Source: a virus
Taxonomy: Duplodnaviria > Caudoviricetes
Virus record (IMG/VR): IMGVR_UViG_3300028454_000499
Span: 15,135 to 79,134 of that record
DNA: 64,000 nucleotides
Strand: one strand, 5' to 3'
Under the pieces are notes generated by a model. That model was not told the origin of the DNA. It did no database searches and worked only from the letters and a program-made list of their open reading frames with translations. Of this stretch, positions 50,443 to 54,335 are shown piece after piece. The translations under genes and the position numbers were made by a program. The first letter of the stretch is position 1; every line of letters starts with the position of its first letter.

Positions 50443-51142
50443 CGTTCTTTACCAGAGAATACCAATAAGCATACTGTCTTGCCTTGTCCCGGTCAGAATC
50501 AGCCTGCCCCTTAAAATTGGCTCTCATGCTATACTTGACGAAATTCCCCAGCAGGAATCCTTTGAACTGCTCCGCAGTAAAAAGCGTCTGCATTACTTCC
50601 AGCGGCTGCATAGCGGCGTTCTTATAATGCTCCTGCTTATCAGCCAGCCCCGTGGTAACTTCATCGTCAACAATAGTTGCACAGCACATGGGGAACCAGT
50701 TTTCGCAATCGTCCTTGAACGTGTTGTCCGAAAAATCCACTTCTTCCACTACACGCGTAGTACCGCAATATTCCTTTCGGCTTCTATAGAACGGCATATT
50801 CGGGGTCTTAATGTCCCCATCTTCGTCAACGCCAAATTCCTCTGCTATGGAATCCCAGGAACGAATCAGAACCCTGTCCCCTGCCTTTAATGCTCTCGGC
50901 TCTTTCGCAGCCTTCAAGGTGTTTTTGGCGAACCAATATGTGTCCACCCCCTCCAGCATATAGCTGTCATCGTATTCATCGACTGAGGCAATCTGCCGAA
51001 CCTCACCACAGTAGCGGCTCATACCTCCGACAAATGAAGGAAGTACCTTAATACGCCCATCAATTTCACCATAGAGTTTCGCCATTTCTTCCCATGGACG
51101 AATACGAACATAATCACCTTTGCTGAACTTACATTTTCCCAT
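50366..51142 (-). CDS. Protein with tandem SH3-like domains and C-terminal DUF3310-like domain
   Basis: KGDYVRIRPW / AGDRVLIRSW repeat; HYKNAAMQPLEVM...FLLGNFVKYSMRANFKG. Confidence 0.7.
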   Translation of the reverse strand: MGKCKFSKGDYVRIRPWEEMAKLYGEIDGRIKVLPSFVGGMSRYCGEVRQIASVDEYDDSYMLEGVDTYWFAKNTLKAAKEPRALKAGDRVLIRSWDSIAEEFGVDEDGDIKTPNMPFYRSRKEYCGTTRVVEEVDFSDNTFKDDCENWFPMCCATIVDDEVTTGLADKQEHYKNAAMQPLEVMQTLFTAEQFKGFLLGNFVKYSMRANFKGQADSDRDKARQYAYWYSLVKNDESYRISPAEDVPADDWDGEGVFAC

Positions 51143-51179
51143 GCTTATTACTCCTTTGTTTAACAACTGTTACTTATAA

Positions 51180-51551
51180 TTAACACTCAAAGCCTAAAAA
51201 AAGACCTTGCTCCCTCATTGCGCCAAAAATCGCTACCAGCACCGGAACACAAATACTGTTCCCGGCCTGTTTATAAAGCTGACTATCGGACAGCCCATTT
51301 TCACTAAGCATATCCGCATCCTCTTTTCTGAACCCCTGCAAAGCAAAGCACTCACGAGGGGTTAATTTACGAATCCTGCCATTTACCATGATTCCTTCAC
51401 CTCTACCTGCTGATGTTAATGTGTGGGCAATCCCCTTCGCGACCCGTCCTCGATGCCCTGTTTCCGCATGAGGATACGACAAGGCTATGCCATCGTACTC
51501 ATTGGCTACCATGTAGCCACGCTTATCGCCATTGCGGCAATAACAAATCAT
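51180..51551 (-). CDS. Split C5 MTase, C-terminal part (TRD-like + motifs IX-X)
   Basis: RGRVAKGIAHTLTS; RKLTPRECFALQGF; QLYKQAGNSICVPVL. Confidence 0.85.
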   Translation of the reverse strand: MICYCRNGDKRGYMVANEYDGIALSYPHAETGHRGRVAKGIAHTLTSAGRGEGIMVNGRIRKLTPRECFALQGFRKEDADMLSENGLSDSQLYKQAGNSICVPVLVAIFGAMREQGLFLGFEC

Positions 51552-51877
51552 TCTTCGACCTCAACCTTGGGCATATTATTTCCACCGGACCCCGTAGGAA
51601 TCGTTGGCGCAACACCATTCAGACCGTAGACACGTTTGAGGTAATCATGGCCGCTAATGGATGCCAATGTTCCTGCCCGGACTATACCATCGGTAATTCC
51701 CTGTGGACTATCGAAGGAAATAAATCCCTTCAACTTTTCATCAGAGTAATAATATTTCTCCGCTACATCGCGGTCACAAATATCTTTCAAATGAACCTGC
51801 AGCGGCACCGGATTCGGAAAATCAAACTTCATCAGCGGAATGTCCACCGTTTTTCTTGCCCGTTCTACTCTATTCAT
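51548..51877 (-). CDS. Free-standing MTase linker + TRD module D
   Basis: FDFPNPVPL..HLKDICD..V.EKYY; RVYGLNGVAPTIPTGSGGNNMPKV. Confidence 0.75.
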   Translation of the reverse strand: MNRVERARKTVDIPLMKFDFPNPVPLQVHLKDICDRDVAEKYYYSDEKLKGFISFDSPQGITDGIVRAGTLASISGHDYLKRVYGLNGVAPTIPTGSGGNNMPKVEVEE

Positions 51878-52178
51878 AAACCAGCACCATCTTAGGCATC
51901 TTATAATCCGAGGCATTAAGTGCCGGACAAATGGAATCCATGTGCATTACGCTCCCCCACTGATGAATCTTCCCATCAGCCGAGGTCAAAAACAGCGCAA
52001 GATTCGGATTCCTGCTCGGTACGATACGAGAGTACCAATAATCAGCCAATGAATATCTCGCCGGTGCCTTTGCATCGAGCAGATTTCTAAGCCGCACCAC
52101 TATATCTTTGCCCTGCGGAAATTCAAATGCCAACTTAGCAATTTTCAGTCCCGCCATCGCTTTCTCAATCCTGTTCAA
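51870..52178 (-). CDS. Free-standing MTase linker + TRD module C
   Basis: TTG start; FEFPQG..VRLRNLLD; SICPALNASDYKMPKMV. Confidence 0.7.
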   Translation of the reverse strand: MNRIEKAMAGLKIAKLAFEFPQGKDIVVRLRNLLDAKAPARYSLADYWYSRIVPSRNPNLALFLTSADGKIHQWGSVMHMDSICPALNASDYKMPKMVLVYE

Positions 52179-52476
52179 GATACACCATCCTCGCCTGTTT
52201 GTAGTCCGTGGCCGCCAAGCATGGGGCAATAGACCCAACATGACACACTTCGTAATGCTGATGAATTTTCCCATCACTAAGCGTAAGACCAAAGGCAAAA
52301 TTGGGATTCTTCACAGCCTTAATCCGGGAATACCACATATCAGCCATGAAATACTTTACCGCCACTACCTTATCCAGAATATCTCCCAAGCGGATAGTCA
52401 GCGGAATCTTCTGCGGAAAAACAAAGGGAAGTATCGGAACATCAATGCTTTTCCGTGCCCGTTCAAGATTAGTCAT
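52165..52476 (-). CDS. Free-standing MTase linker + TRD module B
   Basis: FVFPQKIPL..RLGDILD.VV..KY; SIAPCLAATDYKQARMV. Confidence 0.75.
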   Translation of the reverse strand: MTNLERARKSIDVPILPFVFPQKIPLTIRLGDILDKVVAVKYFMADMWYSRIKAVKNPNFAFGLTLSDGKIHQHYEVCHVGSIAPCLAATDYKQARMVYLEQD

Positions 52477-52999
52477 CCTCACGCAGCCTTGAAATACAGA
52501 AGATACGCTCACGATTCTGCGGCACTCCATAATCCTTGGCGTTCAACACATCAAAAGTGGATTCATACCCCATTTCATCGAGAGCCGCCAAGTATTCCTG
52601 GAATACCGGCAAGTGCTTCGGCGAAAGCACATTCGGTACATTTTCCCACAGAACAAACTTGGGTTTCTTGACCCTCACAATCTCCACCGTATTCCAAAGC
52701 AGTGATGACCGTGTGCCACTGCCCTTTTCTCCCCCTTCACCTCTGCCGGCCACAGAGAAAGACTGGCAAGGACTGCCATGGAAAACCATATCAAAATCCG
52801 GAAGTTCCTCCGGCACAATCTTCGTAATATCTCCGAGATTCATACTTTCGGGGACATGATGGAGCAGGGAATAACTCTTGGCTGCGTACTTGTCGATTTC
52901 ACAGTATGCCACCAGCTCAAAGGGAATCCCTGCGGTGTCTAGTGCCCTCTCCGGTGCACCAATGCCCGAAAACAGGCTCAATAATCTTAATTTCTTCAA
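52469..52999 (-). CDS. Split C5 MTase, catalytic N-terminal part (motifs I-VIII only)
   Basis: LFSGIGA, EID, GDI, GSPCQ, ENV, QNRERIF, then stop. Confidence 0.9.
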   Translation of the reverse strand: MKKLRLLSLFSGIGAPERALDTAGIPFELVAYCEIDKYAAKSYSLLHHVPESMNLGDITKIVPEELPDFDMVFHGSPCQSFSVAGRGEGGEKGSGTRSSLLWNTVEIVRVKKPKFVLWENVPNVLSPKHLPVFQEYLAALDEMGYESTFDVLNAKDYGVPQNRERIFCISRLREDD

Positions 53000-53295
53000 T
53001 GCTTACTCTCCTTTGGGTAAATAACGATATTGTCCTTCCATACCGTAGTAATCGTATTGGTGAATAACGAACTCCGTGGCTCTATCGTCTGCACATAGCC
53101 ACCCTGTCCATTAGGTCTGCCCCTTATTGCGCCAATGGTAAGCACCGTTGGCCATGGCTTCTTCATTGTAAGTTTCTGATAAAACTCACCGCCAACAAAC
53201 CTATCATCGCTAGGATTATCGTCAAGACAATCCGTTATTGTCTTGGATAATTCCATAGGAGCAGGAAAGACAAAGAAATTACTTCTTCCCACCAT
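52996..53295 (-). CDS. Free-standing MTase linker + TRD module A (upstream of the catalytic part)
   Basis: SD CAGGAG; FVFPAPMEL..TITDCLD; AIRGR...IEPR...TNTITTVWKDNIV. Confidence 0.7.
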   Translation of the reverse strand: MVGRSNFFVFPAPMELSKTITDCLDDNPSDDRFVGGEFYQKLTMKKPWPTVLTIGAIRGRPNGQGGYVQTIEPRSSLFTNTITTVWKDNIVIYPKESKH

Positions 53296-54154
53296 AGTGC
53301 TCCTGCCAGTAAGGACAGAATTCATGGACATCACACCAATCACGGCATTTCCGGTCTGGATACGACTTTGACGTATCCCATCGGTCACGCTTACTGCATA
53401 CCGGCGGAATCTCGTGCTTCTCCAGCGCAGCCATCAACCGGTCATACTTGGCCTTCATATATGCCCTTACCCATGTAAGCGAAATAAAGTTGATAGGAAC
53501 AATATAGCCGGCCTGCGTAATCCCATACTTCTTTGCCGTTGCATCCACGCCACCGCGAACAAACATATTCACGTTGATGCCTTTGACATGAAGCCCATGA
53601 TTTTCCATCAAGTAGCGATAGTAATTAAGCTGAATGGCAATCTCACGAATATCGCGGACACCCCCCGGCTCAAATACCTGCTCCCATTTTTCCTTCCCCT
53701 TGTCCTTGCCACGCGTGACAATCCTGCGCTGCCACTTGGCCTTGAACCCCAGAGCCTTGGAAATACGGAACGCACCAAAGAACTTCCAGTCCCAAAGAAT
53801 CTGATTCTTACAATCGTAAGCATCGAACTGTCCGGAGGTAATGTCATCCTCCAGACGAACCTCTGCCAGCCACCCGTTAGGCTGATTTTCCTCGAAAGCC
53901 TTATGGCTGTTCGTGCCAATCATTGCCGCAATGCCCCCCATGGGGTCAATAGCATAATCATGGACGATTTCAAGGTAAGTCTGACGAGTGGGCTTGATAA
54001 GCTGTGTTACACTCGGCTTACCAAACCAGTGCCTTGTCGATTCCACCGCACTTTTCAGTGCCGGCAGCGACATACACCGCTGGTCACATCCGTTCAAGCA
54101 TTGCTCAAACGGCACTTTTTCTCCGGTCTTACACCGGAAGAACTTAGCAGGCAA
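53279..54154 (-). CDS. PD-(D/E)XK (Cas4-like) exonuclease
   Basis: GTNSH, SGQFDAYD, WDWK, QLNYY, Cys cluster CRDWCDVHEFC. Confidence 0.8.
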   Translation of the reverse strand: MPAKFFRCKTGEKVPFEQCLNGCDQRCMSLPALKSAVESTRHWFGKPSVTQLIKPTRQTYLEIVHDYAIDPMGGIAAMIGTNSHKAFEENQPNGWLAEVRLEDDITSGQFDAYDCKNQILWDWKFFGAFRISKALGFKAKWQRRIVTRGKDKGKEKWEQVFEPGGVRDIREIAIQLNYYRYLMENHGLHVKGINVNMFVRGGVDATAKKYGITQAGYIVPINFISLTWVRAYMKAKYDRLMAALEKHEIPPVCSKRDRWDTSKSYPDRKCRDWCDVHEFCPYWQEHYGGKK

Positions 54155-54335
54155 CTAAGTTCCCAACTCCTTGTGATTCAACATAAATCCTCCTTCGTAC
54201 ACCATTACGCCATTATAACGCTATACTATCATAATGGTGTAACAGTATACCATTATACCGCCGTGCCTTATTGCCCGGCAACATAATATATTCTACATCT
54301 GACAATTTTAATTGTCAAGTGTTAATTCATTTACT

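Follow-up and report, generated by a model that had tools for sequence, protein, structure and literature searches.

Cytosine-C5 DNA methyltransferases (C5 methyltransferases) are textbook single-chain enzymes. Two natural two-chain exceptions only, M.AquI and M.EcoHK31I, were named in a 2012 paper (PMC3404938). M.AquI of Agmenellum quadruplicatum is made up of separate N-terminal (motifs I-VIII) and C-terminal (motifs IX-X) polypeptides, the larger of which retains part of the variable region, while M.EcoHK31I needs a large chain with motifs I-VIII, motif X and the recognition domain, and a small chain that contributes motif IX only, with no free recognition subunits (PMC3404938). The locus described here comprises six overlapping open reading frames (ORFs) at positions 51180-53295 of a 64,000-nucleotide (nt) stretch of tailed-phage DNA (the window), taken from IMG/VR record IMGVR_UViG_3300028454_000499. 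Like M.AquI it divides the conserved motifs between two polypeptides, a catalytic half and a closing half, but the catalytic half ends before the variable region, and in loci of this kind two to four extra genes, each encoding an F.FP segment (the dot standing for any residue) and a recognition domain, lie beside or between the halves, whereas M.AquI has two chains. These extra genes are referred to as modules, and the window has four, A to D.

Multiple recognition domains are themselves no novelty in phage. M.SPRI, M.phi3TI and SPbeta MtbP, encoded by temperate Bacillus phages, are described in a review (PMC12707154, citing Trautner et al. 1996) as combining several recognition domains with one core to defeat many restriction systems, and residues 1-105 of module D align with the variable region of phi3T/SPbeta MtbP at 28% identity (expect value, E, 3e-7). 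Unlike the domains of those enzymes, which are arrayed in one polypeptide with one F.FP segment, each domain here has its own gene, F.FP segment and start codon. There is also precedent for assembly from pieces, because inactive N- and C-terminal fragments of monomeric C5 methyltransferases (M.SssI, M.HhaI and M.BspRI) reassemble into active enzyme in vivo, and the most effective cuts lie in the proximal variable region, near the natural cut after motif VIII in the phage locus (PMC3404938); those splits, in contrast, are laboratory constructs of two fragments with no alternative recognition subunits. By analogy only, the arrangement resembles Type I systems, in which a common methyltransferase core takes its specificity from a separate subunit, HsdS (PMC12707154), although the proteins are unrelated, Type I enzymes methylate adenine and have another architecture, and no homology is claimed. 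Full-text searches of the library of papers covered here found no description of free-standing C5 recognition subunits.

Locus architecture and domain content

The window belongs to a 79-kb IMG/VR virus entry with a completeness rating of 98%. All six ORFs lie on its minus strand, each overlapping the next with no intergenic space, in the order module A, catalytic half, modules B, C and D, and closing half (Table 1). A preliminary description, made from the letters of the window and their translations, had placed the ORFs at these coordinates, had assigned motifs I-VIII and motifs IX-X to separate ORFs, and had drawn attention to the position of module A upstream of the catalytic ORF, all of which was borne out. 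The catalytic ORF matches positions 2-163 of the 324-position Pfam profile PF00145 (DNA_methylase; E 7e-51), and its translation contains motifs I-VIII, including FSGIG, PCQ, ENV, and QNRER. Motifs IX and X are not on this polypeptide; they are found 0.9 kb downstream in another frame, in the closing ORF, which matches positions 266-322 of the same profile (E 7e-11) and aligns with the C-terminal 110 residues of continuous relatives. The two halves are thus not adjacent genes, being separated in the window by three module genes.

Modules A to D match no Pfam or PHROG family. Each consists of an F.FP segment, then L.D.L, then a T/L-type recognition loop, as had been described. The preliminary count of four specificity domains holds for the free-standing modules, but the total is five, because the closing ORF carries a complete recognition domain of its own (GY..A..YDG...RGRV...HTLTS) ahead of motif IX. 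These domains sit in separate ORFs and different frames, rather than as a tandem array on a single polypeptide between motifs VIII and IX. The paralogy noted earlier for modules B and C extends end to end (43% identity), and module C, which branches outside all B orthologues, is an old paralogue of B. Profile searches with B and D against PDB sequences found nothing, and matches to module B in the ESM Atlas scored below 0.9, pointed to transposases, and were disregarded. For module D, the nearest Atlas entry is an unnamed, mostly viral cluster of 64-residue proteins (score 0.95, 55 members), which is a lead only and may represent a family of even smaller detached recognition modules.

Modules as copies of one slot in continuous enzymes

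Among viral loci with a catalytic part 45-60% identical to that of the window, 45 of 72 encode ordinary continuous enzymes of 316-746 amino acids (aa), many with tandem recognition domains. Modules A to D were each aligned with a profile of 18 continuous relatives, and all four occupy one stretch of it, positions 171-254, with F.FP as the first aligned segment. They are therefore paralogues that duplicate the first slot of the variable region, an F.FP tail plus one recognition domain. Consecutive fragments of one broken multi-domain chain would show F.FP once only. The F.FP segment is present in every continuous relative aligned, with its proline and the downstream L.D.L invariant. Recognition-domain cores of the A, B, D, and closing-half types are all found in tandem within continuous relatives; a D-like domain is followed by one of the closing-half type in a single chain in L066, L072, L049, and L053, and an A-like domain by the closing-half type in L070, L055, and L057. 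Residues 8-98 of module A match the variable region of the L070 enzyme (E 6e-14), where they lie between the catalytic and closing parts in the same frame.

An AlphaFold2 (AF2) model of the continuous L066 enzyme (predicted local distance difference test score, pLDDT, 75) matches M.MpeI and M.HhaI at Z scores of 30.7 and 30.5. Its seven-stranded sheet is complete within motifs I-VIII, the F.FP..L.D.L segment is modeled with a pLDDT above 90, as is the catalytic core, and the closing-half-type domain is moderately confident. The idea that F.FP supplies strand 7 of the catalytic sheet proved wrong, as the complete sheet, with strands at 141-149 and 160-168, falls within motifs I-VIII and F.FP is a confident extended tail. 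The N-terminal MNRVERA-type extension is conserved on modules B, C, and D and is present on the C-terminal half of the two-gene relative L112. It was considered as a vestige of motif VIII, given the N-R-x-E-R pattern and the same 11-residue spacing to F.FP, but this is unsupported, because profile alignments begin only at F.FP.

Other continuous or nearly continuous loci call for comment in their own right. The gene of Pectobacterium phage PcaP2EGY proved to be continuous (372 aa). In four viral contigs, L038 (4440-4500), L039 (2311-2371), L042 (4440-4506), and L048 (4440-4500), an (AG)n tract runs through the codons of motif VIII (QNRER) and holds one AG unit more than in continuous L009 (4455-4515); this additional unit interrupts the reading frame precisely at motif VIII, leaving an ORF of 164-167 aa followed by one of 304-360 aa, and may reflect either an on/off switch driven by repeat length or a difference in assembly. 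An IMG/VR contig, L100 (1546-4113), encodes a continuous 855-aa multi-domain C5 methyltransferase in which about 340 intein-like residues are inserted after the P-C of motif IV, ahead of the CQD that comes next.

Recurrence of the split and selection on its parts

Relatives were drawn from IMG/VR, ENA, Logan, and NCBI assemblies. An independent ENA metagenome contig, L092, has the same six-ORF layout at 87% nt identity, with 2 gaps in 3.8 kb, and at least 14 further assemblies contain two- to five-part versions with the same cut points. The layout is thus less isolated than it had seemed in the preliminary description, although no paper among those searched describes it. A four-part arrangement (catalytic half, B, D, and closing half) is found in the same phage neighborhood in L001, L081, L085-L087, and L089-L091 and in one NCBI assembly contig. 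More distant is the five-part array of L093, in which the catalytic half is followed by three modules and an 83-aa closing half that has just a stub of a recognition domain. In L094 a B-like module lies upstream of the catalytic half and one module lies after it, and the closing half retains its own F.FP. The plain two-gene form, a catalytic half followed by a D-type module fused to motifs IX-X, was found only in the distant relative L112. Conserved split points combined with a variable number of modules, the pattern that the preliminary description had looked to homologous loci for, are what the relatives display, with 0-1 modules ahead of the catalytic half and 0-3 separating it from the closing half.

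The catalytic and closing halves are each 98% identical in amino acid sequence to those of L092, and the catalytic half is 86-90% identical to those of L001, L081, L085, and L090. Orthologues of module A are 79% (L092) and 56% (L081) identical, free-standing 102-aa homologues of module B are 72-79% identical, the free-standing 102-aa orthologue of module C in L092 is 85% identical, and orthologues of module D at seven loci are 60-86% identical. No continuous ORF was found among the close relatives searched, and a search for longer or fused proteins related to module B found none, which is weak evidence. The ratio of nonsynonymous to synonymous substitution (omega; Nei-Gojobori, window versus L092) is 0.14 for module A, 0.02 for the catalytic half, 0.06 for B, 0.11 for C, 0.35 for D, and 0.045 for the closing half; for B and D it is 0.07-0.26 among more distant orthologues at synonymous divergences (dS) of 0.5-2. 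Judged by these values (0.02-0.35), all six ORFs are under purifying selection, and the low omega of the modules (0.06-0.35) is an outcome in favor of the preliminary reading. Recurrence of the same ORFs in independent assemblies with omega well below 1 excludes chance.

One pair of relatives bears on how modules are exchanged. L088 and L085 are 99.6% identical from motif VIII onward and unrelated before it (L088:240-740, L085:314-838), with L088 carrying a different, HhaI/Dcm-like catalytic half of 35% aa identity. The L088 contig is listed in two samples, and the joint at motif VIII points to modular exchange. Separately, in the Logan contig L089 (3135-3661) the catalytic half is split into two frames at about residue 88-90 with the downstream modules intact, and this broken copy may be an assembly error or a dead copy.

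Junctions and translation of the separate ORFs

Neighboring ORFs are always in different frames, and each of the five junctions is a tight stop/start overlap with its own start codon, in agreement with the preliminary description. From module A to the closing half, the overlaps are TTGA, ATGACTAA, a 14-nt overlap, ATGAATAG, and ATGA. Across relatives, what is kept is a start codon (ATG, GTG, or TTG) that overlaps the upstream stop, together with GAGG or AAGG 7-14 nt upstream (Table 1). Conservation of these sites is visible in the codons that encode them. The Arg of the Ser-Arg-Leu site in the catalytic half is AGG in 8 of 8 loci, the Pro-Arg codons that precede the start of module D use AGG in L001, L081, L085, L089, and L090, and before the closing half GAGGT at -11 is kept in the window, L081, L085, L088, and L092. 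AGG is the rarest Arg codon in the long ORFs of the window (8% of Arg codons), yet it is used at internal ribosome sites in every relative. Sequence conservation thus indicates that the six ORFs lie in one operon and that each is translated from its own start codon by way of stop/start coupling and internal GAGG sites. Apart from a T7 run on the minus strand (window 51196-51202), which falls in the last codons of the closing half (..GLFLGF..), the locus has no homopolymer of six or more.

Table 1. Features of the six-ORF locus and its surroundings, in window coordinates
Feature	Coordinates	Strand	Description
Module A	52996..53295	-	99 aa; free-standing F.FP segment and 'RGR..Q.IE..NTITTV.KDN'-type recognition domain; upstream of catalytic half
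Catalytic half	52469..52999	-	176 aa, TTG start; motifs I-VIII; ends 11 residues past QNRER, before F.FP segment
Module B	52165..52476	-	103 aa; N-terminal MTNLERARK extension, F.FP..L.D.L, 'DGK.HQ..PCLAATDYK' recognition domain
Module C	51870..52178	-	102 aa, TTG start aligning with B and D starts; altered loops (PALNASDYK)
Module D	51548..51877	-	109 aa; MNRVERARK extension, F.FP..L.D., 'GHDY.KRVY..G.APT.PTGSGGN' recognition domain
Closing half	51180..51551	-	123 aa; RGRV..HTLTS-type recognition domain, motif IX (RKLTPRE), motif X (GNS); without F.FP segment
Ribosome-binding site AAGGAGAG	53006..53013	-	6 nt ahead of TTG start of catalytic half; read directly
AAGG in Ser-Arg-Leu codons of catalytic half	52487..52490	-	10 nt ahead of module B start; GAGG in five relatives
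GAGGA in Ala-Arg-Met codons of module B	52188..52192	-	9 nt ahead of TTG start of module C
GAGG in module D	51559..51562	-	7 nt ahead of closing-half start
Promoter-like site TTGACA-17 nt-TAGAAT	54290..54318	-	Ahead of exonuclease gene leading into module A; consensus match 11/12

A proposed core with alternative specificity subunits

The best-supported reading, which seems to us somewhat likelier to be right than wrong, is that the locus encodes a multi-chain C5 methyltransferase whose core would take alternative specificity subunits. Its stricter form, that the modules are true trans-acting subunits and that the catalytic core and closing subunit would be programmed by whichever protein of about 100 aa (F.FP plus recognition domain) docks on them, is evenly balanced in our estimation. 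In this scheme the catalytic half would supply the full seven-stranded S-adenosylmethionine-binding and catalytic sheet (motifs I-VIII), and each module would dock on it through its F.FP tail; B, C, and D carry the N-terminal extension as well. The catalytic and closing halves both lack F.FP. The tail of a module would complete the large domain and tether the recognition domain of that module, and the closing half would complete the enzyme by contributing a recognition domain along with motif IX and the helix of motif X. Each assembly of three chains would then be the counterpart of a two-domain relative encoded continuously. Since four modules would share a single docking site, these assemblies would exist as alternatives to one another, together covering up to five target sequences, so that phage DNA would be shielded from several host restriction enzymes. 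The layout probably lets one enzyme core mark several sequences and thereby escape host restriction, and the autonomous format of the modules would permit their gain, loss, or duplication without breaking the enzyme.

Several observations fit this model. The closing half of L093 has a mere stub of a recognition domain, so specificity there could come from the modules alone; the exchange in L088 occurred at motif VIII; and laboratory fragments cut at a comparable point reassemble (PMC3404938). The genomic tests favor the multi-subunit reading advanced in the preliminary description, while its central claim, that the modules set the specificity of the core, is one that we infer from the genes.

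Weighing on the other side are the following points. Efficient complementation of split enzymes needs an intact small domain (PMC3404938), whereas the phage locus encodes motif IX on one chain and the module on another. AF2 assigns low confidence to the D-like domain in its L066 model, in which two recognition domains share one motif IX, and its model of module B alone (pLDDT 38) is uninformative. The L093 array comes from one contig of low coverage. Members of the family are rare, and all are from uncultured sources: apart from the window, they comprise one further IMG/VR record and a few metagenome contigs. A blastn search of GenBank phages with the locus gave no match, and profiles of B and D detected no relative among 185,579 species genomes. 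Finally, the catalytic and closing halves alone might make a two-chain enzyme.

Alternative explanations

This last possibility survives best among the alternatives, although we consider it unlikely. It holds that the two halves form an enzyme of the M.AquI kind that uses the recognition domain of the closing half, and that the modules have another role; they might compete for the core and thereby regulate or inhibit the enzyme, or they might shield DNA sites from restriction by binding them. The closing half does hold a complete recognition domain with motifs IX-X, a two-gene relative exists in L112, and the modules lack the motif IX with which a recognition domain is normally packed (PMC3404938). 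What tells against it is that a core made of the two halves would be without F.FP, a segment that no aligned continuous relative lacks, that L093 would be left with no usable recognition domain in its closing half, and that the modules retain cores of the recognition domains which continuous multi-domain enzymes carry in tandem.

It is very unlikely that the modules are silent or alternative cassettes that are recombined into an expressed position, giving phase-variable specificity like that of shuffling Type I hsdS loci. The units do repeat at 298 and 301 nt, module number and order vary among relatives, and L088 has its recombination breakpoint at motif VIII. Identity between units in these repeats, however, is only about 71% across 34 nt, no recombinase gene adjoins the locus, and every module retains its own start codon and ribosome site. 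Moreover, there is no G or C run of six or more and no dinucleotide or repeat tract in 51100-53450, which argues against slippage switches.

Less credible again is the idea that ribosomes recode every junction, whether through frameshifting or through reinitiation-coupled read-through, to yield one long multispecific chain like M.SPRI. The collinear, overlapping ORFs and the existence of continuous multi-domain relatives of 450-850 aa would suit such a scheme. Module B is offset from the frame of the catalytic half by +1 in three loci (the window, L089, and L092) and by -1 in four (L001, L081, L085, and L090), so no single frameshift signal can be conserved, and programmed frameshifting was rejected on these grounds. 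In addition, the junction sequences differ and have no slippery motif, four successive recoding events would yield negligible product, and every module repeats the F.FP that single chains carry once.

A decaying multi-domain methyltransferase pseudogene, or the product of assembly indel errors, is the least plausible reading and is scarcely to be entertained, for although about one third of the more distant viral loci have frame breaks, some clearly from error-rich assemblies, the same cut points recur in at least 15 independent assemblies, omega is low for all six ORFs, none of which has internal stops, and the flanking genes are intact. Artefact, decay, and recoding are effectively excluded.

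Genomic neighborhood

On the minus strand the six ORFs are preceded by genes for a primase-helicase and then a PD-(D/E)XK-type exonuclease (PHROG 2139), and are followed by a DUF3310 gene and a RusA gene. The site at 54290..54318 is a possible operon promoter, as a pattern match only, in a region where the count of such matches is no higher than in shuffles. In three relatives (L081:3278-3502, L085:59-292, and L090:448-672) a conserved ORF of 74-77 aa, matched by neither Pfam nor PHROG, precedes the catalytic half, sitting between it and module A or the exonuclease gene; the window and L092 are without this ORF, and module A abuts the catalytic half there.

Implications

If the reading of a core with alternative specificity subunits is correct, it would describe a C5 enzyme organized into subunits in the manner of Type I systems, and a set of plug-in anti-restriction parts that a phage could enlarge by single small genes. 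An enzyme with interchangeable subunits would explain how phages gain specificities one small gene at a time. A naturally selected C5 methyltransferase of at least three chains whose recognition subunits are interchangeable would demonstrate that recognition can be fully separated from catalysis in this fold, and its ready-made natural parts (the core, the closing piece, and the docking tail) would serve the construction of programmable split methyltransferases, the engineering of which has so far proceeded by trial and error.

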